DNA of 64,000 bases, taken from the NCBI GenBank assembly GCA_003229305.1, contig QIDH01000057.1:1702-65701 (forward strand). Direction: 5' to 3'. Shown piece by piece: positions 2,848-57,931 of the stretch (position 1 is its first letter; each line of letters starts with the position of its first letter). The position numbers and the translations under genes are program-made. The notes beneath the pieces are model-generated. The model saw only the letters and a list, made by a program, of their open reading frames with translations. It made no database searches and was not told the origin of the DNA. The stretch is from Acidimicrobiia bacterium (GTDB lineage: Bacteria > Actinomycetota > Acidimicrobiia > Spongiisociales > Spongiisociaceae).

Positions 2848-5088
2848 ATGTCACATGCGCTCTATCGACTGGGTCGATTCGCTGCCCGTCGTCCGTGGAC
2901 CGTGATCGGTACTTGGGTTCTCGTCGCTGTAGTGGTGCTCGGTTCTTCTGCACTCTTCGGCCGTGAGTTAGAGGACTCCTTCGAAGTCCCTGGATTGGAC
3001 TCCCAGGACGCCGTCGATCTGCTGACCGCCGCACAGTCCGATCGAGCGGGTTTGACAGCCCAGGTTGTGGTTACGCCACTCGATGAGGGAGCGACGTTCT
3101 TCGACTCCGCTCAGGCGCAGTCCGCATTGCGAGACGTCCAGGAGCTGGCCGCCTCACTTCCCAACGTTCTGGGCACCACCGACCCGGCAGGCGCGTTGGC
3201 GCAAGGGCCAGAGGCTGCGGTGATGAGCGGGTCTGTTTCGCCAGACGGTCGTGTTGCGTTGATCGGTCTCCAGTATCCCGTGATCCAAGACTTGGACCCT
3301 ATCGACCTGGACAACTTCAAGGAGTTCGGCGATGAAGCCAGGGTGGGATCACCGCTCCAAGTCGAACTGCGCGGAGACTTGTTCTTCTCTTTCGAAGAAC
3401 CCCAGACGGGAACTGGTGAGATGCTCGGCCTGATCACCGCCGTAATCATCTTACTTCTGGCCTTCGGATCGCTGATTGCGATGGGCCTGCCGGTCGGGAT
3501 GGCGATCTTCGGCCTGACCCTGGGCATCAGCGCCATGTCGCTGATCACATACCTGGTCGACATTCCAAGCTTTGCTCCTCAGATGGGCAGCATGATCGGC
3601 TTGGGTGTCGGCATCGACTACGCGCTTTTTCTGGTCACAAGACATCGTGAGTTCTTGGCGAGAGGCATGACCGTCGAGGAGTCGGTGGGCCGAGCAGTGG
3701 CAACCGGTGGTCAAGCAGTGATCTTTGCCGGAGGCACAGTCGTAATCGCGATTCTCGGGCTGGCGGTCGCCGGGGTTCCGTTCTTGACTGCTGCCGGAAT
3801 TTCAACTTCCGTCATCGTTCTGATCATGGTGGTCGCTTCCGTGACCCTGCTTCCCGCCTTCCTTGGTCTCGCAGGGCATTGGATCAACCGGCTGGGAATC
3901 AGACGACACAAAGGTGCAGATGGACGAACCATCGGCGCCGGCTGGGAGCGATGGGTCGAACACGTGGCCGCAAACGCGTGGGCGTACGCCATCGGTGTGA
4001 CAGTGTTCCTGTTGGTCCTGACTGCTCCGGTCCTGGCGCTTCGTCTTGGTTTCCCGGATGACGGCACCCTGCCGGACACGCGGACAGAACGTAGGGCGTA
4101 TGACCTCGTGGCTGATGGTTTCGGTCCTGGCATCAACGGCCCATTGGTCATCGCAATCGACATCTCCGAAGACGCGAGCGTGATCGAACCTTTGGTAAGG
4201 GCGATTGCGGGCGATTCCGGAATTGCGGCTGTCGCGCCCCCTGAGATCAACGTTGAAGCCGGCGTCGCAACTGTGATCGCCTTTCCGACCACTTCTCCTC
4301 AGGACGAAGCGACTCTCGAGACCATCAAGAGGCTGCGGGCCGACGTGTTCCCCCCACTGCTCGACCAGAGTCCAGCCAAGGCCCATGTTGGAGGAGCGAC
4401 GGCGAGCTTCGCCGACATCGGCGACAAGGTCAACGGTCGGCTGCTCGTGTTCATCGCCGCGGTGATTGCCCTGTCGTTCGTATTGCTGGTTGTGGTGTTC
4501 AGGTCGATTCTGGTGCCTCTGAAAGCTGCGGTTCTCAACCTGCTCAGCATCGGCGCCGCCTACGGAGTGTTGGTCATGGTTTTCCAATGGGGTTGGGGCA
4601 AGAGCCTCATCGGGTTGGAAGCCACCGTCCCGATCGTGTCCTTTATTCCGATGTTCATGTTCGCGATCCTGTTCGGTTTGTCCATGGACTACGAAGTGTT
4701 TCTGCTGTCGAGAGTTCGCGAGGAGTACCTCCTAACCGGTGACAACGACCGTTCCGTGGTGCATGGCATAGCCAGCACCGCGAGGGTCATCACGTCTGCC
4801 GCTCTGATCATGATTTCGGTCTTCCTCGGATTTGTGCTTGGAGACGATCCGATAATCAAGATGATGGGCCTCGGTCTAGCAGTTGCGATCTTTGTAGACG
4901 CCACGATCGTACGAGTGGTCCTTGTGCCGGCCACGATGAAACTGATGGGCGATGCCAACTGGTGGATCCCCGGTTGGCTCGACCGGCTGTTGCCAACCAT
5001 CGACATCGAGGGTGAGGCAGGCTTGCCTGAACCCGATATGGAAAAAGATCTCGACCCGGACGCCGACAAACAAGGAGCTCTGGTCTAG
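2848..5088 (+). CDS. MMPL family RND transporter
   Basis: GVGIDYALFLVTRHRE, FGLSMDYEVFLLSRVRE, RVITSAALIM, DATIVRVVLVPATM, NWWIP. Confidence 0.95.
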   Translation: MSHALYRLGRFAARRPWTVIGTWVLVAVVVLGSSALFGRELEDSFEVPGLDSQDAVDLLTAAQSDRAGLTAQVVVTPLDEGATFFDSAQAQSALRDVQELAASLPNVLGTTDPAGALAQGPEAAVMSGSVSPDGRVALIGLQYPVIQDLDPIDLDNFKEFGDEARVGSPLQVELRGDLFFSFEEPQTGTGEMLGLITAVIILLLAFGSLIAMGLPVGMAIFGLTLGISAMSLITYLVDIPSFAPQMGSMIGLGVGIDYALFLVTRHREFLARGMTVEESVGRAVATGGQAVIFAGGTVVIAILGLAVAGVPFLTAAGISTSVIVLIMVVASVTLLPAFLGLAGHWINRLGIRRHKGADGRTIGAGWERWVEHVAANAWAYAIGVTVFLLVLTAPVLALRLGFPDDGTLPDTRTERRAYDLVADGFGPGINGPLVIAIDISEDASVIEPLVRAIAGDSGIAAVAPPEINVEAGVATVIAFPTTSPQDEATLETIKRLRADVFPPLLDQSPAKAHVGGATASFADIGDKVNGRLLVFIAAVIALSFVLLVVVFRSILVPLKAAVLNLLSIGAAYGVLVMVFQWGWGKSLIGLEATVPIVSFIPMFMFAILFGLSMDYEVFLLSRVREEYLLTGDNDRSVVHGIASTARVITSAALIMISVFLGFVLGDDPIIKMMGLGLAVAIFVDATIVRVVLVPATMKLMGDANWWIPGWLDRLLPTIDIEGEAGLPEPDMEKDLDPDADKQGALV

Positions 5089-5146
5089 CTCGCCTTCATG
5101 CGAGGGCTGATTAGCCTTGGAAGGCCAGACAGGTCGGAGGGCGGAA

Positions 5147-6751
5147 TTGGCTGATGCGCCTTGGTGGAAGAGCGCCGTCATCTACCAGATCTACCCACGT
5201 TCGTTCATGGATTCGAACGGTGACGGTGTTGGAGATCTTGCGGGCATCACGAGCAAGATCGACTACCTGGTGGACACGCTTGGCATAGACGCGATTTGGA
5301 TCTCGCCGTTCTTCAATTCACCAATGGCGGATTTCGGATACGACGTTTCCGACTACACGGGTGTTGATCCGCTCTTTGGTGACCTCGACGCCTTCGATTC
5401 CCTCGTGGCCCGCTGTCGGGAGCGGGGGCTGCGCCTGATCATCGACTGGGTGCCGAACCATTCTTCGTCCGAACATCCATGGTTCGTCGAGTCGAAGTCC
5501 TCACGCGACAATCCAAAGCGAGACTGGTACACCTGGGCGGATCCGGCTCCGGACGGTGGCCCGCCAAACAACTGGATCGCAGTGTTCGGAGGTCCGGCCT
5601 GGGAGTACGACGATTCCACCGGTCAGTACTATTTGCACAGTTTCTTGGCGAGCCAACCTGACCTGAACTGGCGAAACCAGGGCCTCAAATCCGCCATGCT
5701 CGATACGCTCGCGTTCTGGCTAGACCGGGGCGTGGACGGGTTCCGGATGGACGTGGTGCACTTCGCGATGAAGGACCCCGAACTGGCGGACAATCCGGTG
5801 CTCGACCAACCTGAGACCGGCTACAAGTCGCTCGGCAACGAGTACGACAGGTTGGTGCACGCCAACGACCGAGGCCACCCAGACATCCATCCGATGCTCC
5901 GTGAGGTGCGTTCCATCCTCGACCGGGCAGAGGCCGAATCTGGATCGGCCAAGTATTCGCTTGGGGAAATCCATTTGCTCGACTGGAACGAGTGGGCCTC
6001 GTACTACGGGGCAGACAACGACGAACTGCACATGCCATACAACTTTGCATTCGTCAATGGTCCGTGGACGGCGCAATGGGCCAGGAACAACGTTGAAGAG
6101 CTTGAGGCCGCCCTGCCGGAAGGCGCATGGCCGAACTACGTGCTCTCCAACCATGACGAACACCGGCTGGTGGCGCGCCTGGGGTGGGATCGTTCGGCGC
6201 TTGCGATCTTGATGCTGCTCACCCTGCGGGGCACTCCGACCATCTATTACGGCGACGAGGTCGGAATGCTTCAGGCCGATATTCCACCCGAACGCCAGCA
6301 GGATCCGTGGGGTCAACGAGTTGCCGAGTTGGGCCGAGATGGTGAACGAACCCCAATGCAATGGGATGCGACGCCAGAGGCCGGTTTTACCAAACCGGGA
6401 GTCGAACCCTGGCTGCCGATCGTCGATCCGGATGGGTTGCACAATGTGGCTGCGCAACTCGACGATCCAAACAGTCGCCTCGAGTTCTACAGACGCCTCC
6501 TGGCGATCCGCAAGACATCGTCTGCGTTGCAACTAGGCGACTACCAAACGATCCACGTCGTTCCAGACGAGGTGTTTGCCTACCGACGCAGCTATGGCCA
6601 CGAGGTCGTGGAGATCTATCTGAATATGGGGCAGTCTCCTGTCGACGTCGTCGCCGAGGGATCCCTTCTGGTCAGTACCGATCGGGCTCGATCAGGCGCC
6701 GTTCGAAACCCGACTCTCGCTGGCCTCGAGGCCATCGCGATCATCCCGTGA
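5147..6751 (+). CDS. GH13 alpha-glucosidase / oligo-1,6-glucosidase
   Basis: WWKSAVIYQIYPRSF, DWVPNHSS, QPDLNW, GVDGFRMDVV, SNHD, YYGDEVGM; TTG start after GGAGG. Confidence 0.93.
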   Translation: MADAPWWKSAVIYQIYPRSFMDSNGDGVGDLAGITSKIDYLVDTLGIDAIWISPFFNSPMADFGYDVSDYTGVDPLFGDLDAFDSLVARCRERGLRLIIDWVPNHSSSEHPWFVESKSSRDNPKRDWYTWADPAPDGGPPNNWIAVFGGPAWEYDDSTGQYYLHSFLASQPDLNWRNQGLKSAMLDTLAFWLDRGVDGFRMDVVHFAMKDPELADNPVLDQPETGYKSLGNEYDRLVHANDRGHPDIHPMLREVRSILDRAEAESGSAKYSLGEIHLLDWNEWASYYGADNDELHMPYNFAFVNGPWTAQWARNNVEELEAALPEGAWPNYVLSNHDEHRLVARLGWDRSALAILMLLTLRGTPTIYYGDEVGMLQADIPPERQQDPWGQRVAELGRDGERTPMQWDATPEAGFTKPGVEPWLPIVDPDGLHNVAAQLDDPNSRLEFYRRLLAIRKTSSALQLGDYQTIHVVPDEVFAYRRSYGHEVVEIYLNMGQSPVDVVAEGSLLVSTDRARSGAVRNPTLAGLEAIAIIP

Positions 6752-8314
6752 ATCCGCTCCGCCGCCGGGCACAGAGGGCAGCGTGAGCCGGAACACGCTG
6801 GTTCCATTGTCGAAATGATACGTGAGTTCGCCGTTCATGAGCCGGGCGAGTTCACGCGAGACACTCAGGCCGAGGCCGACGGAAGGCGCCAGCCCCGATG
6901 CGCGGGAGGAGCGGTAGTACGGGGCGAACATCTCCTCACGGGCCGTTCCTGCGATTTCTGGCCCATCGTCGCATACCTCGATGCAGACGACCTCGTGACC
7001 CATGGTGGTCTTGATCTGGATTCGGTCACCGCCGTGGCGCAACGCGTTGGTGAGCAGGTTGCGGACTATCTGGCGCACTCGAAGTGGATCAGCGAGCGCC
7101 GAGGCCCCTCCACGCCGATACTCGATCTTGTCTATGATGCCGAGCCCTTCGATGACTCGTCGGATTTCGAGGGCCGCCTCCATTTCTTCGGCGATCACTG
7201 TGATCATGCCGCTCTCGGTGCGGGCGGCCACGAGTAGGTCCTCGACGAGCATCGACATCTCATGGCTCTGTTGGGCAACGATGGCCCCCAGCTCGCGCGC
7301 TTCGTCCGTCGCATAGCTCGAGTCGTCTTCGATGAGGCCTGTCGCCAATCCGTAGACGGCTGTCAAGGGAGTGCGGAGCTCGTGGGAGATCGCGGTGATG
7401 AAACGATCCTTGTCCCGGTTGACCTGGTCGGCTATTTCGAGTCGGTGCGCTTGCTCCATCGCCCTTCTGCGGGATGTGACCCCAAGCCAGTAGACCAGAC
7501 TGGCAATCGCGACTGCCATTCCGAACAACACCTCCCCGGTAACGGTGCCGTTCTGCCACTCAAAGTTCGGGCCGGGAGTCAGAGTGACGGACCAATCCCT
7601 TCCCATGAACGGGAGGGTGCGTTCGCTCAGGAGACGCGGCCCGGGATCTTGTGAGATCAAGGGCGTCGATCCGTCGACCAGGGTAATAGCGAGGTCGACC
7701 CCAGCGCCGTCCTCGAGGGGTGCAGATGCAAACGCCTCAGCGTCGACAAAGAGGGCGATTGTGGAGTCGTTGGCCCCGCCGAGCGGGGTGAGCTGGGCGT
7801 AGTAAGGATCACGATTGTGAGTGAAGGGATCGGATGTCACCACGCGGTTCTGCGTGCGAGCCATCTCGGCGGCCTCTGCCAATGCGCCGCTTTCGTCACC
7901 AAATCTGCCAATACCTGCCAGATCGAAGAGCATTGTCATCGTGTAGTCCCCGTCCGGTGAAGGATCCACTCGGCCAAGGGCAGTGATCCCGTCAAGGGGG
8001 AACGAAGAGACGAGCAGGCTCGGATCGAGGCCGAAAGAGCCTTGTTCCATGGCGCTTGTCATCTCTCCTGGCTCGCCGTTCTCGAGGAGCGCGTCGACGA
8101 GAACAGGCATGGCCAAACCGAGCAGCCTGAACCCGTTGATGCGGTCTTCGAGTGAGGAGTAGTACGACTCGACTCCAGCATCGAACTGTTTCTCGTCAAC
8201 AGAGTTGATCGTGCGCGCGACAAGCAGAGCCATCATCGCCGAGATGACGAGCAAACCGATCGTCGACACGATCCAGGGTGTCGTCGGCGTGGGGATTCTT
8301 GGACTGAGGGCCAC
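6692..8314 (-). CDS. Membrane sensor histidine kinase (two TM helices, extracytoplasmic sensor), no adjacent response regulator
   Basis: H-box ISHELRTPLT, N-box NLLTNALRHG, DDGP, VGLGLSV. Confidence 0.9.
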   Translation of the reverse strand: MALSPRIPTPTTPWIVSTIGLLVISAMMALLVARTINSVDEKQFDAGVESYYSSLEDRINGFRLLGLAMPVLVDALLENGEPGEMTSAMEQGSFGLDPSLLVSSFPLDGITALGRVDPSPDGDYTMTMLFDLAGIGRFGDESGALAEAAEMARTQNRVVTSDPFTHNRDPYYAQLTPLGGANDSTIALFVDAEAFASAPLEDGAGVDLAITLVDGSTPLISQDPGPRLLSERTLPFMGRDWSVTLTPGPNFEWQNGTVTGEVLFGMAVAIASLVYWLGVTSRRRAMEQAHRLEIADQVNRDKDRFITAISHELRTPLTAVYGLATGLIEDDSSYATDEARELGAIVAQQSHEMSMLVEDLLVAARTESGMITVIAEEMEAALEIRRVIEGLGIIDKIEYRRGGASALADPLRVRQIVRNLLTNALRHGGDRIQIKTTMGHEVVCIEVCDDGPEIAGTAREEMFAPYYRSSRASGLAPSVGLGLSVSRELARLMNGELTYHFDNGTSVFRLTLPSVPGGGADSRDDRDGLEASESRVSNGA

Positions 8315-8399
8315 GCTATGCCTGTCGGCTCTGGCCGTCCATTTCTAAACCTCTGGGCTCCGCCGTGGTGAACGGGCAGCCGCCGCTCCAATCCTGCGA

Positions 8400-8419
8400 T
8401 ACTTTTGGAACGTATTCCC
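8400..8419 (+). promoter_or_regulatory. Possible -10 plus KstR-like TetR operator upstream of the beta-oxidation operon
   Basis: TACTTT (8400-8405) followed by TGGAACGTATTCCC, two mismatches to TnnAACnnGTTnnA. Confidence 0.3.
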
Positions 8420-8440
8420 AAACAGCGGAGGGCGGACACG

Positions 8441-9346
8441 ATGACCGACATCGTCTTCGACAACCAGGTAGCGATCGTCACCGGAGCGGGTGGGGGACTC
8501 GGCAAGACCTATGCGCTCGAACTCGCCAGGAGGGGAGCCAAGGTCGTAGTCAACGACCTTGGGGGCTCGGTTGATGGGGTCGGCGGTGCCTCGTCTGCGG
8601 CCGACCAGACGGTCGCAGAAATCATCGAGGCGGGTGGCGAGGCGGTCGCCAACTACGACTCGGTCGCCACGGTCGAAGGCGGGGCCGCCATCGTCCAGAC
8701 CGCCGTGGACACGTTCGGTACGGTCGATGTCCTGATCAATAACGCCGGAATCTTGCGTGACAAGAGTTTCGCCAAAATGGATATGGACGCCGTCCACTCC
8801 GTTATCGACGTTCACCTCAACGGTGCATTCCACGTGACCCAACCGGCGTTCGCATTGATGAAAGAAAAATCCTACGGGAGGGTGATCTTCACATCATCAG
8901 GGTCAGGCGTGTTCGGGAACTTCGGACAGGCCAACTATGCGGCGGCGAAGATGGGTTTGGTCGGCCTGATGAATGTGGTGGCAGTCGAAGGCGCCATGCA
9001 CAACATCAAGGCGAACGCCATCGCCCCCATAGCCAGAACCAGAATGACCGAAGATCTGCTCGGGCCGCTTGTCGAGTTGGTGGATCCGAGTCAGGTCACA
9101 CCGCTGGTCGTCTTCCTGGCCTCGCAGGAGTGCGAAAGCTCGCACGAGATCTGGACGGTCGGCGGAGGCCGGTACGGGCGCATCTTCGTTGGCGTCAATC
9201 AGGGATGGTTCGCCGGCAAAGGCGAACCTCCTTCAGTTGAGGAGGTTCGCGACCATCTCGACGAAATTCGCGACATCGAGTCCTATACGATCCCAACCAA
9301 TAGCACCGAGGAAATGATGCTGCTCGGTGCCGCACTGGCGGATTGA
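8441..9346 (+). CDS. SDR, (3R)-hydroxyacyl-CoA dehydrogenase-like (MFE-2 dehydrogenase type)
   Basis: TGAGGGLG, VVVNDLG, NNAGILRD, GNFGQANYAAAK. Confidence 0.92.
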   Translation: MTDIVFDNQVAIVTGAGGGLGKTYALELARRGAKVVVNDLGGSVDGVGGASSAADQTVAEIIEAGGEAVANYDSVATVEGGAAIVQTAVDTFGTVDVLINNAGILRDKSFAKMDMDAVHSVIDVHLNGAFHVTQPAFALMKEKSYGRVIFTSSGSGVFGNFGQANYAAAKMGLVGLMNVVAVEGAMHNIKANAIAPIARTRMTEDLLGPLVELVDPSQVTPLVVFLASQECESSHEIWTVGGGRYGRIFVGVNQGWFAGKGEPPSVEEVRDHLDEIRDIESYTIPTNSTEEMMLLGAALAD

Positions 9347-9349
9347 TCC

Positions 9350-10210
9350 GTGCCCATCGACCTCGAGAAGGTGATTGGTGCCCAGATCGAAACGACTGAG
9401 GCCTCGTGGAACCAAGACGATGTCATTCTCTATCACCTTGGCGTTGGGGCGGGAGCCGATCCGGTTGACGTGAACGAGCTCGAATATGTCTATGAAGCCA
9501 ACCTCAAGGTCCTGCCGAGTTACGCGTCCATCCCGCCATTTGGGGTGATGATCAATCTGCTTGGCGTGGACGGGTTGGACATCAACCCCGCGATGCTGCT
9601 GCACGGTGAGCAGGAGATCGAAGTCAAGGGGCCCATACCGACATCTGCGTCCGTCACCAATCGGGCAAGGATCACCGACGTTTTCGACAAGGGCAAAGGC
9701 GCCACGGTCCACATCGAGGTCGACTCGGTCGACGAATCCGGTGTCACTCTCTTCACCAACCGCAGCACAATCTTTCTGCGGGGCGAGGGCGGATTCGGTG
9801 GGCCGAGCGGGCCATCACCTGGCAACCGACCGCCGGATCGGGAGCCGGACAGGGTCATCGAGTCTCCGACACTGCCTCAGCAGGCGCTCCTCTACCGACT
9901 CAGCGGCGACAAGAACCCGCTGCACGCTGATCCCGTCTTTGCGGCTTTCGGCGGCTTCGATCGTCCGATTCTGCATGGACTCTGCAGCTACGGGATCGTA
10001 TGCAAGGCCGTAGTCGATGCGATGTTTGATGGTGAAGTAGGTGCTGTCGATCGCTACGTTGCACGGTTTTCGGGAGCGGTCATCCCAGGTGAGACGGTCG
10101 TCACGTCGATGTGGGAGTTGCGAGATCGGGTTGTGATCGAAGCAAGCACCATGGAGCGTGCGACGTCTGTCATTTCCAATGCTGCGGTGATGAAGAGGTC
10201 AGAGGGATGA
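9350..10210 (+). CDS. MaoC double hot-dog (R)-enoyl-CoA hydratase 2
   Basis: LLHGEQ and hydratase-2 motif YRLSGDKNPLHADP...PILHGLC. Confidence 0.92.
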   Translation: MPIDLEKVIGAQIETTEASWNQDDVILYHLGVGAGADPVDVNELEYVYEANLKVLPSYASIPPFGVMINLLGVDGLDINPAMLLHGEQEIEVKGPIPTSASVTNRARITDVFDKGKGATVHIEVDSVDESGVTLFTNRSTIFLRGEGGFGGPSGPSPGNRPPDREPDRVIESPTLPQQALLYRLSGDKNPLHADPVFAAFGGFDRPILHGLCSYGIVCKAVVDAMFDGEVGAVDRYVARFSGAVIPGETVVTSMWELRDRVVIEASTMERATSVISNAAVMKRSEG

Positions 10211-11388
10211 TCGAAGAGCAGCGGGTTGCGGAGGCGATAACCAAGCTCATCGATGAGAACCCGCCAAGAGTCACCGACGAGGTCGAGTTTTGGGGTGCCC
10301 AGTTCGATGCCGGCCTTGCCTGGGTCCACTTTCCGGTCGGACTCGGCGGACTTGGGGCTTCCAGAGGTCTGTTCCGCATGATCCTCGATGAGCTCCGAAA
10401 GGCAGGGGCGTCGTTCGCGAACGTCAACCGCAACATCATCGGATACGGCATGGGAGCGCCGACCGTATTGACCCACGGTACCGATGCCCAGCGAGGCCGG
10501 TATCTCCGGCCTTTGTTTACAGCCGAAGAGGTCTGGTGTCAGCTCTTTTCGGAACCGGGGTCCGGATCTGATGTGGCCGGTCTGTCGACCAGGGCGATCA
10601 AGGACGGAGACGAATGGATCGTCAACGGACAGAAGTCGTGGACGACCCTGGCCCACACGGCGAAATGGGGAATGCTCGTCGCCAGGACGGATCCTGACGT
10701 CCCCAAACACCAAGGCTTGACGTATTTCATCGTCGACATGCGTCAGGCGGGAGTCGAGGTGCGGCCGCTCCGGCAGATGACGGGCGAGGCCGAATTCAAC
10801 GAGGTGTACTTCACAGATGCCCGGATACCTGACGAGAACAGGCTCGGAGCCATCGGCGAAGGGTGGAAGGTGTCCGTCACGACACTGATGAACGAGAGAG
10901 TCGCCATCGGGTCGGCACCGACCCCGAGGGGCGCTGGTGCCATTGCGGAAGCCGTGAGTGTGTGGCTCAAGACGCCGAGAACCGACCTGGTAAAGCGAGA
11001 TCAGTTGGTGAGCCTTTGGATCGAGGCCGAAGCCCTGCGGCTGACGAATATGCGTGCAGCACAATTGGCCAGCAAGGGTGTACCTGGTCCTGAGGGTTCA
11101 ACCGGCAAGCTCCAATGGGCCGAGCTGCAAAAGAAGATCTACGAGTTTGCGATCGGAGCGCTAGGTGCTGAGGGCCTTTTGTACGGCTCGGCTTACGAGA
11201 TGACCAGGCCGGATGAGGCAAGCTTCGGTAAGCGAGACACCCAGCAGAATTTTCTCAGGTCACGGGCCAACTCAATCGAGGGTGGAACCAGTGAGATCAT
11301 GCGCAACATTCTGGGCGAGAGGGTGCTCGGATTGCCGGGCGAGCCGCGAGTAGACAAGGAACTTTCCTGGAAAGATGTTCCGCGCTGA
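10207..11388 (+). CDS. Acyl-CoA dehydrogenase (FadE)
   Basis: WCQLFSEPGSGSD, NGQKSWT, FNEVYF, SIEGGTSEIMRNILGERVLGLP; ATGA overlap. Confidence 0.93.
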   Translation: MIEEQRVAEAITKLIDENPPRVTDEVEFWGAQFDAGLAWVHFPVGLGGLGASRGLFRMILDELRKAGASFANVNRNIIGYGMGAPTVLTHGTDAQRGRYLRPLFTAEEVWCQLFSEPGSGSDVAGLSTRAIKDGDEWIVNGQKSWTTLAHTAKWGMLVARTDPDVPKHQGLTYFIVDMRQAGVEVRPLRQMTGEAEFNEVYFTDARIPDENRLGAIGEGWKVSVTTLMNERVAIGSAPTPRGAGAIAEAVSVWLKTPRTDLVKRDQLVSLWIEAEALRLTNMRAAQLASKGVPGPEGSTGKLQWAELQKKIYEFAIGALGAEGLLYGSAYEMTRPDEASFGKRDTQQNFLRSRANSIEGGTSEIMRNILGERVLGLPGEPRVDKELSWKDVPR

Positions 11389-50649: not shown

Positions 50650-51579
50650 CTACTCCGGATTCCGACGTCCGGAATCACCGATCGGCAGGTCTTGGGTGAA
50701 CAGGTGCTCTGGGATCGGGGCGCCGACTCGCATGAGGGCCAGCTTCCACGAAGGCGAGGCTCCCATCGCCCAACGGAGAATCTTGATGAGCAGCCGGCCG
50801 GCCACTATCGCCCCTGGGTAGGCCTTGATTCCCAGCACGACCCGGATCCGTTCGGGAGTTGTTGCAGACGCCGCCCAGAACATGATCTTGTAGCCGGCCT
50901 TGAGCGTTGGGCGGAGCGGCGGGCTCTTCAGGAACTCAATGGCGCCGACCAGGCCAGGCGACCCACCGAGGTCAGGATGATCTCTCACCCACGAAGCCAA
51001 TGCGGCCGCGCTGCTCGGCAGCGGGCTCGCATCCAACAAGGCGCCGACCGTCGTCTGTTCCGCGACGAATCTGTCGGCGTCTTCTTCGCTGAGTGGCTCC
51101 CTGCCGAATGTGCGATACGAGGTGAGGAACGAATCCGTGAGGGCGTTGTGGACCCACGCGGCAAGATCGGCCTGGTCGGCCGAATATGGGCGGCCTCGCT
51201 CCGACGTTCCGCTGACAGGCCGATGGGCACCACGAACCCTGCCAACGGCCACCTTGACTTCCGGCATCGATCCGTAGGCCACCGACGTGACATATGAACT
51301 GGTCCTCGACAGACGTCCGAGCGGATCTTCGCGGTACTCGGAATGCTGAAACACGCCGGCGGCAACCTCGGGGTGGGCTGCTTGAACGAGCAGTGCCCGG
51401 ATCCCACCGATGAAACTCGCCACGTCGGACATGACCACCCACGTCGCTGAATCCGGCCCAAACAATCCGGGATCACCGCGATGTTTGAGCGTGTCGGCGA
51501 GTGGATAGTCGGCGTGGCGGAACGGGCTGGCGGCGGCCCTCGTCAGCCGGGAACGAACGGAAGTGAGAAGCCCAGACAC
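50650..51579 (-). CDS. MpaB/DUF2236 family oxygenase-like protein
   Basis: DPGLFGPDS, GGIRALLVQAAHP, DPLGRLSRT, H..V.G, AWVH. Confidence 0.88.
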   Translation of the reverse strand: MSGLLTSVRSRLTRAAASPFRHADYPLADTLKHRGDPGLFGPDSATWVVMSDVASFIGGIRALLVQAAHPEVAAGVFQHSEYREDPLGRLSRTSSYVTSVAYGSMPEVKVAVGRVRGAHRPVSGTSERGRPYSADQADLAAWVHNALTDSFLTSYRTFGREPLSEEDADRFVAEQTTVGALLDASPLPSSAAALASWVRDHPDLGGSPGLVGAIEFLKSPPLRPTLKAGYKIMFWAASATTPERIRVVLGIKAYPGAIVAGRLLIKILRWAMGASPSWKLALMRVGAPIPEHLFTQDLPIGDSGRRNPE

Positions 51580-51630
51580 GATGCACCCGAGTCTTCCACG
51601 AGCCGGCTGTTGTGCAAGTCGACAGATGGA

Positions 51631-51720
51631 TGCAACGTTTCGGTGCTGATTGCGTTCACCGTCCATTCCGCGGCTGGTAGCTCCGAAGATGGCGTGCAAC
51701 GCTTCGGGTATGCGGAGCGT
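51631..51720 (+). promoter_or_regulatory. Two tandem ECF-type promoters
   Basis: TGCAAC-16-CGTT (51631-51656) and TGCAAC-17-CGT (51695-51720) upstream of the sigma gene. Confidence 0.55.
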
Positions 51721-51729
51721 GGATGTGGT

Positions 51730-52179
51730 GTGAGTGACGAGATGATCTACCGGTCGGTGGCAGGCGACCTGGTTCGTTACGCGACTGCCCTCGTTGGGCC
51801 AAATGACGCCGCCGATGTGGTTTCGAGCGTCATCACTAGAGCGGTTGCGAGACGGGGTGGGCTCACGGGGATTCGTGAGGCGCGGCCCTACTTGATGCGA
51901 GCGGTGCTGAACGAAGTTCGAACCCGCCACCGCACACGGGTCCGACGACCGTTGGTTCCGTTGCCCGATGGCCGAGATCTTGGGGTCAGGGACGATCTCG
52001 ATCTGACCCTTGAGCTGATTGACATATTGCCGCCCAGGCAGCGGGCGGCCGCGTTTCTCGTCTATTGGCAAGGGTGTTCGGCGCCCGAAGCCGCCGAACT
52101 GATGGGATGCCGGCCGGCCACAGTTCGGCGCTACCTGCATCTCGCCCGCAACAAACTGGAGGGTGCCTTCGATGACTGA
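51730..52179 (+). CDS. ECF sigma-70 factor
   Basis: Region 2 DAADVV..YLMRAVLN; region 4 LPPRQRAA..EAAELMG..TVRRYLHLARNKL. Confidence 0.9.
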   Translation: MSDEMIYRSVAGDLVRYATALVGPNDAADVVSSVITRAVARRGGLTGIREARPYLMRAVLNEVRTRHRTRVRRPLVPLPDGRDLGVRDDLDLTLELIDILPPRQRAAAFLVYWQGCSAPEAAELMGCRPATVRRYLHLARNKLEGAFDD

Positions 52180-53416
52180 GCGATACCGCATTGCATTCGA
52201 CACACTGGTTGATCGGACGCCGGAGCCCCCCGCCTGGGAGGAGATCCCTCGATCGAGTGCGGTTCGTGACAGGCGGGTGATCATCGGACCGCGGCGGGCT
52301 GTGCTTGCCGCATTGATCCTAGTTGTGAGCTTTGGGGTAGTCGCCTGGTTGGTGCGCGGCATCGGCGGAGCGGAAGCGGCGGCTGCGTCGGTCGATCTCG
52401 TGGAGCTCACCTGGTCTCAAGACGTGACCCTCATTTGCGAAGGGGGTGACATAGTCGACAACAACGGATTCGATGACGCGACGATCAAGATTTACGGCCC
52501 TAGCCCCGACGACTTCTGGCGGGTGGAGGCCACCGCCCCAGATGGATCGAACGTTTTCTTTGTATACGAAGGCGGCCAGATCCCGGCTCTGCGTTCCTGG
52601 CAGGATCCTGCCCCTATCACGACCAATAGCCAGTGGCCATTCAGAGACGCGGAATGCCGCTATCCGACAGTTGGATTTTCCATGTCCAAATCACCCGTTC
52701 AGCCCATTGGCAACCTCCTCACGAGCTTCGCCACGACTCGAATCACCGAGCCGTCAGGGCGAGAGACCGACTTGGTGGCTTCTTTGAACGAGCATCCCTC
52801 CGTGACGACATCGGAGGCGATCTGGCGGGGTCTTCCGGTTATCGTTTTCACGGAGGAGCGGCAGTCGCTTGATGACCTCGGACGATCGCGTTTCTTTTCA
52901 TTCGAGCGGTGGATAGACGTTGAAGCCGGGCGGGTCGAGCGGCAGCTGAGAGTGGAAGACCAAGAGGGGCTCGGTTTGGTTAGGTCCGAGTTCCGCGTGA
53001 CTGCTCGCAGCAGCGTCGCTTTCGACCCGGCTCTGTTCGACGCTGAAGGCATGCAGATCGTGATGGACACCACCGGGGGCGATGTCGAGGACGCTGGACC
53101 TGTGGCCGTGACAAGCTCGATCCCGCCACTCGCTACGCCTCTGATGGCTGGCGCCGAATCCGCTGAACTCGCTGACCTTCCTGGTGCGGATCTTGGCGAA
53201 GCCCGCATCGGAGACAGGTTCTACCGGGTCCCTGACACCGAAGCCGTCTTCGTTCGGTTGCGCATCGGCGAGCCGCCTCTCCTGTTCGCGACATCCTGTT
53301 CGGATCTCACCGCGGTGGATCTCCCGGAAGGGTGGACAGGACTGTGCGGCGAACGTGAGATCGACGGCGAGACTCAGACCGGAAAATTCTCATACCAAGA
53401 TGTCGTCGCAGGCTGA
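52172..53416 (+). CDS. Putative membrane anti-sigma factor with large extracellular domain
   Basis: Overlaps the sigma gene 3' end; short cytoplasmic N-terminus, one TM helix. Confidence 0.65.
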   Translation: MTERYRIAFDTLVDRTPEPPAWEEIPRSSAVRDRRVIIGPRRAVLAALILVVSFGVVAWLVRGIGGAEAAAASVDLVELTWSQDVTLICEGGDIVDNNGFDDATIKIYGPSPDDFWRVEATAPDGSNVFFVYEGGQIPALRSWQDPAPITTNSQWPFRDAECRYPTVGFSMSKSPVQPIGNLLTSFATTRITEPSGRETDLVASLNEHPSVTTSEAIWRGLPVIVFTEERQSLDDLGRSRFFSFERWIDVEAGRVERQLRVEDQEGLGLVRSEFRVTARSSVAFDPALFDAEGMQIVMDTTGGDVEDAGPVAVTSSIPPLATPLMAGAESAELADLPGADLGEARIGDRFYRVPDTEAVFVRLRIGEPPLLFATSCSDLTAVDLPEGWTGLCGEREIDGETQTGKFSYQDVVAG

Positions 53417-53511: not shown

Positions 53512-54054
53512 CTATTCGTCGTGGCCGTCGCCTTCGTCAGCTGGGGCCTCGTCGTGGTCGGCGTCTTCTTCGGCCGCGTCTTCGTCGTGGTCTCCGGCTG
53601 GGGCACCGATCATGTCGCGCCAGTCCGGGCGGTCGGGGGCGTCTGGTTCGAATGCCCGCAGGTAGGTGACCACCGCTCTGATCTGCTCGGAGGTGAGTGG
53701 GCCGCCGAAGTCGAGGGCGTAGGCGCTCATTTCGCTGCCGGGGATTCCGACCGAGACGAGCAGTTGGATCTGGTCGTTGGTTGCCGAGGTCAGGAACTGT
53801 TTGGAATTGAGGGCAGGGGCATCGACGCCCTGGCCGTCGGCTCCGTGACATGAGGCACAGCTAAGCGCGAATATCTGGCTGCCCTGGCTCACCAGCGACT
53901 CTGTGTTGGCGACGCGGGCTTCTTCGCGAGCTGTCGGCTCGATCAGCCGGTAGAGGGGGAAGGCCAGTACTAGGGCGAACATGAGGATCCCGCCCACCAT
54001 CATCAGGCGGTTGGTCGATTCCTCGAGTTCTGGATCATGGGTGTAGCCGGGCAT
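53512..54054 (-). CDS. Membrane-anchored monoheme cytochrome c
   Basis: N-terminal TM, CASCH, distal Met in GSEMSAY, acidic/His-rich tail. Confidence 0.92.
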   Translation of the reverse strand: MPGYTHDPELEESTNRLMMVGGILMFALVLAFPLYRLIEPTAREEARVANTESLVSQGSQIFALSCASCHGADGQGVDAPALNSKQFLTSATNDQIQLLVSVGIPGSEMSAYALDFGGPLTSEQIRAVVTYLRAFEPDAPDRPDWRDMIGAPAGDHDEDAAEEDADHDEAPADEGDGHDE

Positions 54055-54557
54055 CAGGCCTCCTCAACGCAAGGTGGTCCTTTGGGCGGTTCGTCAATTA
54101 CTTCGCCGCCAGGAGGTGGGCCTTCGATGATGGTTGAAGTGTCGATGAGGACTATCCCGTCCTGGATCTCGATCGGAAACCGGTCGAGACCGCGTGGAGC
54201 CGGACCGGCCCGATAGTCGCCGGCCCTGTTGAACACCGAGCCGTGGCACGGGCACTCAAACTGCCCAGACGTATCACACCACGGCACTCGGCATCCGAGG
54301 TGGGTGCACTTCCAATACAACGCGGTGATCTCACCATTGATTGTCGTCAGGTAGGCCCTCGCCCCTGGGATCGTGAGAACTTCGGCGTCCGTTGGGACTG
54401 CGTCGACGGGCGCTCCTCGGATTTGCCCGCCGAAGCCGCCAGTATCGATCGGCTGCAACAGGTCCCAAGAGGTCCAGGCGCCCGCCGCACCCATCAATCC
54501 TGCCCCCCATACCCACATGTTCGAGAGGAACGCCCTTCTTGTGATGATCTCGCTCAT
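54054..54557 (-). CDS. Rieske [2Fe-2S] protein
   Basis: Tat signal TRRAFL, CTHLGC, CPCHGS. Confidence 0.95.
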   Translation of the reverse strand: MSEIITRRAFLSNMWVWGAGLMGAAGAWTSWDLLQPIDTGGFGGQIRGAPVDAVPTDAEVLTIPGARAYLTTINGEITALYWKCTHLGCRVPWCDTSGQFECPCHGSVFNRAGDYRAGPAPRGLDRFPIEIQDGIVLIDTSTIIEGPPPGGEVIDEPPKGPPCVEEA

Positions 54558-55126
54558 AGTTCTCCGTACCATTCGTTCCAGGGCCAAACCCAACCCCAGT
54601 TCGGGCCCCTAAAGGCGAAACCGACGAGGGTGAGGATGATCCAGATTCCCAAGAATGCGGTGAACGCAGTAATCGCAACCTTTCGATGTCGTGGTTTCAG
54701 ATAGGCATTGCGGTCGAGGTATGGCAGGGCCGCAAGACCAAAGAGGATGCCGGTCGGAACGAGGATGCCCGCCACCAGTGGATGAAAATGGGCCAGCAGC
54801 TCCTGAAGGGCCGCAAAATACCAGGGAGCCTTTTCCGGGTTGGGGGTCAGGTTCGGATTGGCGATCTCCCTGAGCGGGGCGTCGAATAACAGCGCCAGTA
54901 GCAGCACCAGCAGCATGACGGCCAGAGCGGCGACCGCGTGGCGCACCAACAGGTGCGGCCACACCATGACGGCGTCTTCATCGATGAGGTCCTTGCTCTC
55001 GCCCGTAGACGGCTTGCCTGGGACCACGCCGAGCACCCTGCGGCCGTCGATCAGCTTGGGCTCGCTGGTGAGCGTGTACGCCTCGCCGGCCAGGGGCGAT
55101 TCTTCGTTCTCCGTCTGGTCACTCAC
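54554..55126 (-). CDS. Cytochrome b6-type subunit IV (C-terminal half of cytochrome b)
   Basis: WPHLL, ANPNLTPNPEKAPWYF..QELL, PYLDRN. Confidence 0.9.
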   Translation of the reverse strand: MSDQTENEESPLAGEAYTLTSEPKLIDGRRVLGVVPGKPSTGESKDLIDEDAVMVWPHLLVRHAVAALAVMLLVLLLALLFDAPLREIANPNLTPNPEKAPWYFAALQELLAHFHPLVAGILVPTGILFGLAALPYLDRNAYLKPRHRKVAITAFTAFLGIWIILTLVGFAFRGPNWGWVWPWNEWYGEL

Positions 55127-55848
55127 GGTTCGCTCCTCTCCATATCGAGCATCGAATCCTTCCGCCAGCGCCACAGGTGCACCGCGAGCACGACGACGAG
55201 GACGGCCGGCAGCAGGGCGACATGGAGCACGTAGAAGCGGATCAGGGTGGAGGCGCCAACGGCCGGTCCGCCCAGCAGGATCTCCGAAACCCGGTCTCCG
55301 ATGAACGGGACATATGTGGCCATCCCGGTTCCCACGGTCACCGCCCAGTAGGCCAGCTGATCCCATGGGAGCAGGTACCCGGTGAACGACAACAGCAGGG
55401 TCAACAAGAGCAACACCACCCCGATAACCCAGTTGAATTCACGGGGAGACTTGTAGGCCCCTCTGTAGAAGACCCTGGCCATGTGGAAGGAGACCGCCAA
55501 GACCATCAGGTGGGCAGACCATCGATGCACGTTGCGGATGTATTGGCCGAAGGCCACCTGGGTTTCGAGGTTGATGATGTCGCCGTAGGCATTGGCAGGC
55601 GAAGGCACATAGAAGAACATCAGGTAGACCCCTGACGCCACCAGAGATCCAAAGAGAACAGTCGAGATCGCCCCCAGGTACCAGGAGTACCGAAAGCTGA
55701 TCTCCTTGCGTCGCATCTTGACCGGGTAGATATGAAGGAAGAAGTTCGCCCAATGCCCAGCTGCCACATCGCGGGTGGTCACCCGGTCTGGCGCTCGGAA
55801 GAACGAACGTCCCATCATGCTGTGTCTGACTCGGTCCATCACCTTCAT
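55123..55848 (-). CDS. Cytochrome b6-like protein (N-terminal half of cytochrome b)
   Basis: VHRWSAHLM..FHMARVF, PREFNW, FTGYLLPWDQLAYWA, RFYVLH..H. Confidence 0.95.
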   Translation of the reverse strand: MKVMDRVRHSMMGRSFFRAPDRVTTRDVAAGHWANFFLHIYPVKMRRKEISFRYSWYLGAISTVLFGSLVASGVYLMFFYVPSPANAYGDIINLETQVAFGQYIRNVHRWSAHLMVLAVSFHMARVFYRGAYKSPREFNWVIGVVLLLLTLLLSFTGYLLPWDQLAYWAVTVGTGMATYVPFIGDRVSEILLGGPAVGASTLIRFYVLHVALLPAVLVVVLAVHLWRWRKDSMLDMERSEP

Positions 55849-57647
55849 GCCGGTACTCCCACTCCAGTCCAGACTCCCATGGACAGAGCGTCCACCGGGC
55901 AACGTTCGATGCAAAGGGCACATCTGATGCATTTGTTTTCATCGAGCAATAGGGCGGTCCCGCCGGTGCGATCCGGTTCGACTTGCTCAGAGGGCACGAG
56001 CGTGATGAGGTCGAACGGGCACACCTCGGCACATAGTGCGCACAGGACGCAACGCTCCGTGTCGAGCAGAATGTTGGCGAAACAGCGCAGGCATCGCTGC
56101 GCTTCGCAGCGGGCCATCTCCTCGGTGAAACCGGTCTCGACCACGGTGAGTCCGATGCGGCGTTTGGTGGGGATGGTCGGGACGTCGACCCGGCCGATCC
56201 GGTCGTAGATGTCGTCGAGACGGTGGAACTGCTCCAATTTCACGATCTTGCCTGGCTGCTCCTGTTCCGGCGCGCCACCAAAATGGGCGTTGATCGAAGC
56301 GGCCGCCTTGCGTCCATCCGCGATCGCGTCGATGAGCGTTCGTGGTCCTTTGGCCGCGTCCCCTCCCGACCAGATTCCGTCTATCGAGGTTCGGCCAGTT
56401 TCGGGGTCGACCTGGATCGTGCGGCGTGGACTTATCTCCGGGCCGGCTGATCCGAGCGAGTCGAGGTCGATTGCTTGGCCGATGGCGAGGATCACGGTGT
56501 CGGTGTCGAAGACCTCCCGATCGGATTCGTCGAACTTCGGTGCGAACCGGCGGTCCTCGTCGAACACAGACAGCACCCCGATCGTTTCGACGCCTTTCAC
56601 GCTCCCGTCTGCTGTGATGATGCGGGCCGGACCGCGCCGGTGTACAAAAGTTATGCCTTCCTTCTTGGCCTCCTCGACCTCGAAATGGTGGGCGGGCAGT
56701 TCCTCAGCCGACTCCAGAGAAATGACGGTGACGTCACGGGCTCCTGCCCTAGCCGCGCTGCGGGCAGCATCGATGGTGAGGGTCATGGTGTCCGAATCGG
56801 CCTCTTGGTCCTTCGAATCGGGCTCGGTCGGCCGTGTTCCAACCCCCGTCCTGGCGTATTCGGCGGCCCGCAAAGCGGTTCGGGCCGCGTCCATCGCCAC
56901 ATCTCCGCCCCCGATTACGACGACGCGTTCACCGATGTTCACGTCGAACCCACGGTTCATGTTGATCAGGAACTCGATTGCCTTGAACACACCATCGGCG
57001 TCGTGCCCCTCGATGTCGAGGCCGCGACCAAGAGTGGCACCGATGCCCAGGAACACGGCGTCGTGGCGTTCGCGCAGGTCATCCAGAGTCACCTCGGAAC
57101 CGAGTCGGGTGTCGTAGTGCACCTCGATTCCCAGGTCGAGGATGGAATTGATCTCCTTGCGGATCAGATCCCGGTCGAGCCGATACTCTGGGATGCCAAG
57201 CCACATCGCCCCGCCCAGCTTGTCCGTGGCCTCGTAGACCGTCACCTGGTACCCGCAGCGGCGAAGGTCATGAGCGGCGGACATGCCGGCCGGCCCGCCT
57301 CCTACTATGCCAACACTTTGCGGCTTGTCCTCAGCAGGCGGGGCCGCCACCTCCAGCCACTTCTTGCCGTTTTCCGACTCGGGTCCGTACTTTTCGGTGA
57401 CGAATCGTTTGAGGGCTCGGATAGCGATCGGTTGATCGATCTGACCTCGGCGGCAGGCATCTTCGCACGGGGCCGCGCAAACCCGTCCGCAGACCGAGGC
57501 GAATGGGTTGGGCAGGCGAGCACTCAGATAGGCGGTCTCGTCGTCGCCGTCTGCGATGGCGGCGACGTACATGCCGGCATTGGTGTGCACCGGGCAGGCC
57601 GCCAGGCATGGGATGTTCTCATCGAAGAACGAGAGCCCCTCGATCAT
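55845..57647 (-). CDS. GltD/DsrL-like FAD/NAD(P)H oxidoreductase with N-terminal Fe-S clusters and C-terminal 2x[4Fe-4S] ferredoxin
   Basis: CLAACP, CGRVCAAPCEDAC, GGGPAG, GIPEYRL, GGGDVAMD, CLRC, CVLCALCAEVCP, CIRCALCIERCP. Confidence 0.93.
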   Translation of the reverse strand: MIEGLSFFDENIPCLAACPVHTNAGMYVAAIADGDDETAYLSARLPNPFASVCGRVCAAPCEDACRRGQIDQPIAIRALKRFVTEKYGPESENGKKWLEVAAPPAEDKPQSVGIVGGGPAGMSAAHDLRRCGYQVTVYEATDKLGGAMWLGIPEYRLDRDLIRKEINSILDLGIEVHYDTRLGSEVTLDDLRERHDAVFLGIGATLGRGLDIEGHDADGVFKAIEFLINMNRGFDVNIGERVVVIGGGDVAMDAARTALRAAEYARTGVGTRPTEPDSKDQEADSDTMTLTIDAARSAARAGARDVTVISLESAEELPAHHFEVEEAKKEGITFVHRRGPARIITADGSVKGVETIGVLSVFDEDRRFAPKFDESDREVFDTDTVILAIGQAIDLDSLGSAGPEISPRRTIQVDPETGRTSIDGIWSGGDAAKGPRTLIDAIADGRKAAASINAHFGGAPEQEQPGKIVKLEQFHRLDDIYDRIGRVDVPTIPTKRRIGLTVVETGFTEEMARCEAQRCLRCFANILLDTERCVLCALCAEVCPFDLITLVPSEQVEPDRTGGTALLLDENKCIRCALCIERCPVDALSMGVWTGVGVPA

Positions 57648-57931
57648 CAGATGCGCCGATTCCGCTCAGCCCACCAGAGGGCGTAGATGCCAAGCGCCAT
57701 GGGTATCAGCCACGCACCAGAACCGATGAGGTCCCTGGCGAAACGTGGGAGCCGAGCGACGAACCCGGCCTGCACGATCCTGGAAGGAAGCCAAACGGTG
57801 GCGACCACGAAGTAGATGACGATCACCGCGGTTTTCAGCCAAGCCTTCGTCCAAGAAAGCTGAACCCGGTCGATCTCGCGAAACAAGCCACGGGAGGGCT
57901 GATCGGCGCCTTGTTTGGGACCTGGCTGCAT
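57647..57931 (-). CDS. Small two-TM membrane protein, first gene of the Rieske/cytb operon
   Basis: Two hydrophobic segments; GAGGA RBS; TGATG coupling to the flavoprotein. Confidence 0.75.
   Translation of the reverse strand: MQPGPKQGADQPSRGLFREIDRVQLSWTKAWLKTAVIVIYFVVATVWLPSRIVQAGFVARLPRFARDLIGSGAWLIPMALGIYALWWAERNRRI

Follow-up and report, generated by a model that had tools for sequence, protein, structure and literature searches.

What does a cytoplasmic iron-sulphur (Fe-S) flavoprotein do in a Rieske/cytochrome b operon of an actinobacterium? The question is raised by six open reading frames (ORFs), g1 to g6, on the minus strand of a 64,000-nt stretch of DNA from an Acidimicrobiia bacterium (GCA_003229305.1, contig QIDH01000057.1, here C5, positions 1702–65701), which is called the window below. 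The assembly comprises 1.95 Mb in 112 contigs and is 72% complete. A first-pass annotation, made from the sequence of the window, had read the six genes as a non-canonical Rieske/cytochrome b cluster genetically coupled to a soluble multi-Fe-S flavoprotein. We found this coupling borne out by a conserved gene order in relatives, and the flavoprotein, which is of the NfnB/GltD type, is probably a real subunit of the predicted complex that exchanges electrons with haem bH.

Conserved linkage of the flavoprotein and cytochrome genes

The six ORFs span 57931–53512 of the window (Table 1), and their coordinates and junction reads match the overlaps that had been described: in order from g1 to g6 the junctions are TGATG, ATGA, GTGA, ATGA and TGATG, with all five stop/start overlaps measuring 1 or 4 bases. 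The longest ORF of g3 begins at 55932, upstream of the ATG that overlaps the g2 stop. Judged by its junctions, g1–g6 is one translationally coupled operon, predicted to encode a non-canonical Rieske/cytochrome b complex.

A scan of species-representative genomes yielded 573 confirmed related loci, of which we used the best 80 (67–75% identical), nearly all labelled Acidimicrobiia, Acidimicrobiales, Ilumatobacter or Microthrixaceae metagenome-assembled genomes. Genes for cytochrome b, subunit IV, the Rieske protein and cytochrome c follow the flavoprotein gene in this order in 71 of these 80 loci; in the remaining nine the contig ends at most 1736 nt downstream and carries as many of the genes as fit. 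In 76 of the 80, the gene just ahead of the flavoprotein gene is a g1 homologue. Among 40 order-level relatives, seven have a full-length or fragmentary g2 orthologue with at least 63% identity (one from the same genus, six from other families), and all seven keep the order flavoprotein, cytochrome b, subunit IV, Rieske protein, cytochrome c for the length of their contigs. The 33 genomes scored as negative include two unpublished ones, G028 and G039, on which no other result given here depends. A g2 orthologue is missing from all 23 further genomes of the family. Sampling 400 other Actinomycetota genomes evenly, we found 18 carriers (50–74% identity, 13 of them in other classes, several being single-contig genomes), and cytochrome b and subunit IV come directly after the flavoprotein gene in 17/17 new loci plus G025. 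The linkage between flavoprotein and cytochrome is not due to chance; it is old, patchily distributed and never broken up, and was kept wherever the flavoprotein occurs. Look-alike flavoprotein clusters of 560–650 amino acids (aa) in Acidobacteriota and Pseudomonadota, from a protein-cluster Atlas, are leads only.

Two genomes, G029 and G040, show a further arrangement. Directly upstream of the flavoprotein gene they carry a second module with a 160-aa Rieske protein, a 230-aa cytochrome b and a 795-aa fusion of subunit IV with an octahaem cytochrome c (8 CxxCH), which places the flavoprotein gene between two Rieske/cytochrome b modules.

Table 1. Coordinates of the operon and of the other features discussed (positions are those of the window unless a contig or locus is named).
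Feature	Location	Strand	Description
g1	57931–57647	minus	94 aa, small membrane protein, no known family
g2	57647–55845	minus	600 aa, cytoplasmic NfnB/GltD-type FAD/Fe-S flavoprotein
g3	55848–55123	minus	241 aa from the ATG overlapping the g2 stop; cytochrome b6-like
g4	55126–54554	minus	190 aa, GTG start; subunit IV
g5	54557–54054	minus	167 aa; Rieske [2Fe-2S] protein, twin-arginine signal/anchor
g6	54054–53512	minus	180 aa; membrane-anchored monohaem cytochrome c
Acidic tail of g6	53512–53600		C-terminal Asp/Glu/His-rich tail
Sigma factor gene and 417-aa gene	51481–53416	plus	ECF-type sigma factor (Sigma70_r4_2, Sigma70_ECF) and a protein of no family
Ferredoxin-cytochrome b cluster	C3, 18000–36000; cluster 5068–10912	minus	151-aa 2x[4Fe-4S] ferredoxin, cytochrome b, subunit IV, 312-aa Rieske protein, 484-aa dihaem cytochrome c
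QcrCAB-like cluster	C26, 4000–22000; cluster 6760–9819	plus	QcrC-QcrA-QcrB set
CO dehydrogenase, form I	C10, 4457–6727	minus	large subunit
Oxidase operon of a relative	L046, 986–5835	minus	COX2, COX1 (Pfam 320 bits), 736-aa fusion, 211-aa cytochrome c
Second module, G029	L026, 2884–6439	plus	Rieske protein, cytochrome b, subunit IV-octahaem cytochrome c fusion
Second module, G040	L027, 8668–12229	minus	Rieske protein, cytochrome b, subunit IV-octahaem cytochrome c fusion

The flavoprotein g2

Protein families were assigned by Pfam and NCBIfam scans, and hydrophobic segments by a Kyte-Doolittle hydropathy threshold. Pfam recognizes in g2 a Fer4_20 domain, Pyr_redox_2 and two Fer4 domains, which corresponds to a layout of N-terminal Fe-S domain, Rossmann domains for flavin adenine dinucleotide (FAD) and nicotinamide adenine dinucleotide (NAD(H)), an RCLRC motif at 518–522 and a C-terminal 2x[4Fe-4S] domain at about 525–595. 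Hydropathy shows no N-terminal hydrophobic segment, in agreement with the earlier reading that a signal peptide is lacking. The best NCBIfam model, PRK12771, scores 459.6 bits against a cut-off of 516, and g2 stays below the cut-off of every NCBIfam model. Across 53 sequences 16 cysteines are invariant (six N-terminal ones, RCLxC at 518–522 and two CxxCxxCxxxCP motifs), enough for four [4Fe-4S] clusters, which makes g2 a flavoprotein of the electron-wire type. Among solved structures, g2 is most closely related to the Bfu-type NfnABC subunit 9bov/9bp5 (1.2e-89; g2 is collinear with residues ~102–624 of 9bov), NfnA 9n5u, NfnB 4ylf/5jca and GltD, while the C-terminal domain matches FwdF (5t5i, 1.4e-22). 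The protein thereby belongs to the same fold family as NfnB/NfnAB, Bfu-type NfnABC and GltD of glutamate synthase (Fer4_20 plus a two-dinucleotide-binding flavoprotein core), but it adds the C-terminal 2x[4Fe-4S] ferredoxin domain, and by gene context its partner would be a membrane cytochrome complex.

In NADPH-dependent flavoproteins of the GltD/NfnB type, strand 2 of the NAD(P) domain is followed by Arg-Arg, where g2 has Leu-Glu. On the strand after the second GGG motif g2 reads SLE (310–312), whereas all five solved homologues in the alignment (9bov, 9n5u, 8oh5, 4ylf, 5jca) read YRR; the pattern [S/A/T]-L-E is present at this position in 53/53 alignment rows, with L-E invariant. By the classical rule an Arg binds the 2'-phosphate of NADPH and an acidic residue marks an NAD site, so that SLE in place of YRR points to a nucleotide site of the NADH type, not the NADPH type. 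The name NAD(P)H oxidoreductase given in the first-pass annotation is right as to the FAD, nucleotide and Fe-S domains, and would have to be narrowed to NADH. The names that public databases give to g2 orthologues, 'formate dehydrogenase (NADP+) beta subunit', 'NADPH-dependent glutamate synthase beta subunit-like oxidoreductase' and 'FAD-dependent oxidoreductase', all pass over the neighbouring cytochrome genes, and labels such as 'formate dehydrogenase beta subunit' or 'glutamate synthase-like' mislead metabolic reconstructions.

The membrane-side subunits

The split of cytochrome b into a b6-like protein and subunit IV was recognized at first pass, and the family matches agree: g3 carries Cytochrome_B (Pfam, 155 bits) and is a four-helix, b6-like protein, and g4 carries Cytochrom_B_C (35 bits) with three hydrophobic helices in the hydropathy scan. 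Among solved structures g3 is closest to b6 (1e-43), followed by bc1 (1e-32) and actinobacterial QcrB (1e-25). Its haem ligands H108, H122, H209 and H224 are all invariant, and so is R229, the b6-like Arg five residues past the n-side (cytoplasmic) haem ligand. At the place of the cysteine that binds haem cn in b6-type proteins g3 has a Trp (SWYLG), and a Cys occurs at this CxGG column in 0/53 of the flavoprotein-linked cytochromes b. In g4 the motif of the quinol-oxidation (Qo) site is APWY (KAPWYF, 53/53), and R29, L31, G32 and V34 of the N-terminal n-side motif RxLGxV are invariant.

Three known types were considered for these subunits and rejected. ExtP and ExtQ are the best curated models in NCBIfam, but g3 and g4 remain below their cut-offs (266.1 vs 290 bits and 65.2 vs 150 bits), and the Geobacter cluster has no flavoprotein. 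The b6f/b6c type is discounted by the missing haem-cn Cys in the 53 sequences and by a b6 model score of 192 against 325 (NF002990). A canonical QcrCAB would require far higher scores than were found for QcrB (122 vs 500), QcrA (32 vs 275) and QcrC (41 vs 200).

The twin-arginine export of the Rieske protein and the single haem of the cytochrome c, both proposed earlier, are supported by motif and family evidence. g5 matches the Rieske family (Pfam, 40 bits), has TRRAFL at its N-terminus and contains box I CTHLGC and box II CPCHGSVF; among its orthologues most of 71 have box II CPCHGS.[FY] and 64/68 have the RR motif. The best solved match of g5 is 9rk3_A (63.8 bits, E 1.6e-16), followed by 8hn2_A (55.9) and 9rk4_A (54.4). 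The entries 9rk3 and 9rk4 are Kustd1480 and Kuste4569 of Kuenenia (Hauser 2025, PMC12954380), and the potential of the Kustd1480 Rieske protein was measured at +335 mV (PMC12954380); the Ser/Phe pair in box II of g5 is the same as in Kustd1480. g6 matches Cytochrom_C; its single CxxCH motif reads CASCH, and a hydrophobic anchor lies near the N-terminus at 17–35. One CxxCH is found in 69/71 orthologues and two in 2/71. It ends in an Asp/Glu/His-rich tail of about 30 residues, DHDEDAAEEDADHDEAPADEGDGHDE, which is specific to the genus, since alignments outside the genus stop near residue 150. A cytochrome c on contig C26 bears an Asp/Gly tail that is longer still.

For g1, Pfam and NCBIfam gave no match and the protein-cluster Atlas gave only 'hypothetical protein' clusters. 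Two hydrophobic segments are apparent when it is aligned, and its C-terminus is basic, so the proposed two-helix topology holds by alignment, but only the first segment lies above the Kyte-Doolittle threshold. In 39 aligned rows the mean identity is 38%, P49 is the sole invariant residue and no His is conserved.

Other Rieske/cytochrome b clusters of the genome

A family search of the assembly found three cytochrome b genes or clusters, on the window's contig C5, on C3 and on C26, so that the operon is the third such cluster rather than a second complex as had been supposed. A separate qcrCAB, which had been suggested as something to look for, is present on C26 (QcrB 605 bits vs a cut-off of 500). 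The C26 QcrB (562 aa) bears a C-terminal cytochrome c domain, and QcrC, with only 176 aa and one haem domain, aligns to the latter half of the dihaem model, so that the two haem domains are split between two proteins.

The cluster on C3 is the close relative of the window operon. Its genes are in the same order with an Fe-S protein first, ExtP is the best model for both cytochromes b, and the Qo motif is KAPWYF in both, as opposed to PDWY in the C26 QcrB. Identity between the two amounts to 60% for cytochrome b, 43% for subunit IV and 39% for the Rieske protein, and residues 528–595 of g2 share 31% identity with the C3 ferredoxin (E 2e-12). By gene order and identity the window operon is a paralogue of the C3 cluster. 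It differs from it in that the C3 cluster has a ferredoxin only, without an FAD/NAD module, keeps the haem-cn motif (CLGG; ExtP 303 bits vs a cut-off of 290) and has a larger Rieske protein and a dihaem cytochrome c. The C3 cluster is divergent to COX1-like and FixO-like genes.

The ferredoxin form is near-universal in the class, with a homologue in 57/61 class genomes (E ≤1e-20), whereas the flavoprotein form is patchy (7/40 relatives, 18/400 in the phylum). In all 30 ferredoxin loci examined the cytochrome b gene follows on the same strand after 12–106 nt, and CLGG is present in 30/30. The first-pass annotation had taken qcrCAB as the usual actinobacterial complex. For this class the standard is instead the cluster of ferredoxin, cytochrome b (CLGG), subunit IV, Rieske protein and dihaem cytochrome c, and the window operon is its paralogue. 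Complex III of Acidimicrobiia may generally include a cytoplasmic ferredoxin-like subunit; the literature searched contained no description of it.

Proposed docking of the flavoprotein on cytochrome b

Of the related loci, 62 extend 5.5 kb or more upstream of the flavoprotein operon, and 38 of these have a divergent oxidase operon next to it (Table 1). The 736-aa protein of the latter is a fusion of a cytochrome b N-domain with 2x[4Fe-4S], FlpD-like and cytochrome c domains. Three observations argue that the C-terminal ferredoxin domain of g2 sits on the cytoplasmic face of cytochrome b, where it would be the likely docking module: the domain is encoded immediately before cytochrome b, the paralogous cluster has a gene for a free-standing homologue in the corresponding position, and relatives have a covalent cytochrome b-ferredoxin fusion. 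The n-side of the cytochrome would then act as a socket that takes up a ferredoxin in the paralogue and an NAD(H)/FAD module in the window operon. Quinone-reduction sites of the b6 type have haem cn as their basis, and the loss of its Cys suggests that the n-side no longer reduces quinone; the contrast between 0/53 at the CxGG position and CLGG in 30/30 of the paralogue fits an n-side site that was rebuilt for a protein partner.

Alternatively, the flavoprotein could be merely co-transcribed, as a soluble NAD(H):ferredoxin-type enzyme co-regulated with the complex, for instance as a redox-balancing partner. Such an unattached enzyme would be consistent with the missing membrane segment of g2 and with public annotations that treat its orthologues as free-standing oxidoreductases. 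Support for binding was not obtained from a complex prediction either: for cytochrome b 1–236, subunit IV 20–179 and full-length g2 with 53-row alignments the median was 0.58, compared with 0.00, 0.00 and 0.44 for the controls, a result that weighs neither for nor against binding. We consider an unattached enzyme improbable, since the position immediately upstream of cytochrome b is invariant across the phylum and includes a start/stop overlap, the homologous ferredoxin gene takes the same position in 30/30 paralogous loci, and the cytochrome b-ferredoxin fusion occurs in relatives. In Kuenenia, moreover, the equivalent subunits are cited as migrating together with the complex (PMC12954380, PMC5600118).

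Direction of electron flow

The explanation that we put forward tentatively is that of a third, non-canonical complex with a docked flavoprotein working in the direction from quinol to NAD+; docking, electron path and direction are what we infer. The membrane part would consist of a two-haem b6-like cytochrome b, subunit IV with an APWY Qo site, the twin-arginine-exported Rieske protein, an anchored monohaem cytochrome c and g1 as a small accessory protein, and the cytoplasmic part of the flavoprotein, which would hold FAD and up to four [4Fe-4S] clusters beside a site of the NAD(H) type. Menaquinol would be oxidised at Qo. One electron would pass through the Rieske protein and cytochrome c to a terminal oxidase and O2, the other through haem bL, haem bH and the four Fe-S clusters to FAD and NAD+. 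Bifurcation at Qo would thus drive NAD+ reduction in place of a Q cycle. The reaction lies near equilibrium by our own estimate, given menaquinone and a membrane potential; it would therefore probably run in either direction, according to the redox poise of the three pools.

Flow from quinol to NAD+ as the physiological direction is a choice that we make with slightly less than even confidence. It is favoured by the match of g5 to Kustd1480, by the adjoining oxidase of the relatives, by an A-type COX1 in the window's own assembly and by a CO dehydrogenase as a source of electrons at the quinone level. The large subunit of this form-I enzyme scores 1200.8 bits with TIGR02416 against a cut-off of 991, from which the organism probably oxidises carbon monoxide (CO).

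Several points weigh against this direction. Modules of the GltD/NfnB type (GltS, DPD, Nfn) mostly pass electrons from NAD(P)H into their partner, and the invariant Leu-Glu suggests NADH, the usual catabolic donor, which suits electron input at least as well. The APWY motif is not diagnostic, as it is also found in the class-wide paralogue. NDH-1 is present (NuoD on contigs C3 and C101), so that NADH oxidation and reverse flow driven by the proton-motive force are already served, and no RuBisCO was found in the 72%-complete assembly, which leaves no obvious autotrophic need for reverse electron flow. The oxidase operon that adjoins the flavoprotein operon in relatives was likewise not found in this assembly. 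With menaquinone at about -74 mV (as quoted in PMC12954380) and transfer against the membrane potential, NAD+ reduction would by our own estimate be only marginally downhill. Searches of the literature and of RNA runs gave no physical, biochemical or expression evidence for the lineage; no RNA run was listed, and one run of unspecified kind with 0.82 of the window's words may be the source sample.

The main rival is electron input, in which the flavoprotein would serve as an NADH dehydrogenase module on the n-side. Electrons would flow from NADH through FAD and the Fe-S clusters to haem bH and on to menaquinone at an n-side site, or would prime the b haems, and the whole complex would be a compact NADH:cytochrome c oxidoreductase feeding the terminal oxidase. 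Membership of g2 in a family that usually takes up NAD(P)H electrons fits this, as do the NADH-type motif in 53/53 sequences and the strongly downhill transfer from NADH to haem b or menaquinone. The adjoining oxidase operon in 38/62 relatives would complete a self-contained branch from NADH to O2, and the invariant R229 shows part of the b6-type n-side site to be kept. Yet the haem-cn Cys, the basis of b6-type quinone-reduction sites, is present in 0/53, and the genome already has NDH-1. Electron input would also waste about 250 mV, an objection raised for anammox bacteria (Hauser 2025, PMC12954380) that is weaker for aerobes tolerating non-pumping NADH dehydrogenases. We regard electron input as rather unlikely, and nothing that we computed decides between it and flow from quinol to NAD+. 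For a related proposal of the first-pass annotation, a conduit from NADH to an outer cytochrome, this analysis found nothing in support.

A third direction would be reverse confurcation, where menaquinone would be reduced at Qo by NADH jointly with reduced cytochrome c and high-potential periplasmic electrons would be lifted into the quinone pool. It would fit APWY in 53/53 subunit IV sequences, but the class-wide paralogue has this motif in common, no periplasmic lithotrophic donor system is found in or adjoining the operon, and the neighbouring genes in relatives encode an oxidase, which suits forward flow to O2. Reverse confurcation is very improbable.

A wider view suggests itself that is possible but on balance doubtful: the operon would encode a bifurcating 'complex III' of aerobic Actinomycetota, minimal and reversible, with menaquinol as donor and cytochrome c and NAD+ as acceptors. 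An n-side ferredoxin would be a general, hitherto undescribed subunit in Acidimicrobiia (57/61), with the flavoprotein filling the same socket by an NAD(H) plug, and electrons at the quinone level, e.g. from CO oxidation, would make NADH without reverse complex I.

Surroundings of the operon

Just downstream of the operon, on the opposite strand, lies a pair of genes for an extracytoplasmic function (ECF)-type sigma factor and a 417-aa protein (Table 1), the start of the latter being overlapped by the sigma factor gene. The 417-aa protein has one membrane segment and is possibly an anti-sigma factor. A scan for promoters and terminators found no sigma-70-like site and six terminator-like hairpins (3.3 ± 1.7 expected), every one of them within genes and none at the operon ends.

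Comparison with known systems

By its gene content the operon is a minimal aerobic form of a known, biochemically uncharacterised kind of complex, as far as sequence comparison can tell. The closest described systems come from anammox bacteria, whose complexes have reportedly been treated by Kartal in 2013 and de Almeida in 2016 as well. In Kuenenia stuttgartiensis the complexes Kustd1480–1485 and Kuste4569–4574 combine Rieske/cytochrome b proteins with an NAD(P) oxidoreductase subunit (PMC12954380). We compared cytochrome b and the flavoprotein with published descriptions and through shared solved relatives. Like the window, the anammox systems bring together in one operon the genes for a Rieske protein, a b6-like cytochrome b of four helices, a protein resembling subunit IV, and a cytoplasmic NAD(P)-type flavoprotein with FAD and several [4Fe-4S] clusters. 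Kuste4570 is reported as an NfnABC (9bp5) core plus a FwdF-like (5t5i) part, and the nearest solved relatives of g2 are the same two entries; Kustd1480 is, as said, the best solved match of g5 and shares its Ser/Phe pair. In contrast, the anammox models carry haem cN, whereas cytochromes b of the window type have no haem-cn Cys. Subunit IV has five helices in anammox bacteria, but three in the window, where the small membrane protein g1 is separate. The anammox complexes include hexa- and octahaem cytochromes and a protein like hydroxylamine oxidoreductase (HAO), the window operon a single monohaem cytochrome c. The anammox flavoprotein lacks one ligand, while all 16 Cys of g2 are invariant. 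The NADH-type motif of g2, an aerobic host and the adjoining oxidase operon in many relatives are further differences.

Reduction of NAD(P)+ by quinol bifurcation in a Rieske/cytochrome b complex has been an open proposal since 2013 and has been argued only for anammox bacteria. These grow slowly and have many-haem complexes. The actinobacterial operon, carried by aerobes, presents the same idea in six small genes that provide for one haem c and for no haem cn. The actinobacterial complex would therefore be a much simpler object for purification, cryo-electron microscopy and enzymology. Should a ferredoxin-like n-side subunit be general in Acidimicrobiia, an abundant class in marine and soil habitats, the textbook picture of QcrCAB would fail for the class.

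It had been stated at first pass that clusters of this kind are known mainly from anammox Planctomycetes. They are indeed the closest described systems, but the pairing has been noted beyond Planctomycetes: Dibrova 2017 (PMC5600118) reports oxidoreductases within the operon in some planctomycetes, and proximity 'in many other cases' on its tree. The 'subfamily G' defined there has a short split cytochrome b beside a gene for a large NAD(P)-binding, Cys-rich oxidoreductase, as in the window; short length correlates with CxGG in that subfamily, whereas the short cytochrome b of the window has no CxGG. The literature searches brought up no description or test of the actinobacterial form, in line with the first-pass annotation; published supplementary trees and tables may list cases.

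Kao and Hunte 2014 (PMC4122944) describe an uncharacterised APWY clade that includes Actinobacteria, with reverse operation suggested, and list Actinobacteria including an Ilumatobacter strain among the carriers of split cytochrome b. The Qo motif is common to that clade and to subunit IV of the window, a likeness at the level of the motif. As a marker of reverse operation we rejected APWY, which the class-wide C3 paralogue has too. The 736-aa fusion in the oxidase operon of relatives resembles the type 'cyt b fused to a non-Rieske FeS protein' mentioned by the same authors (PMC4122944).

The ExtOPQ proteins of Geobacter (Rieske protein, cytochrome b and membrane protein), to which the best curated models of g3 and g4 belong, although below their cut-offs, are encoded in the cluster extHIJKLMNOPQS (PMC5877670). 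This cluster comprises multihaem cytochromes, a porin and a rhodanese-like protein, but no flavoprotein. With QcrCAB, finally, the window operon has in common that it encodes a predicted Rieske/cytochrome b quinol oxidase in an actinobacterium; it differs in its split cytochrome b, APWY in place of PDWY, a Rieske protein with a single anchor and a cytochrome c with one haem.

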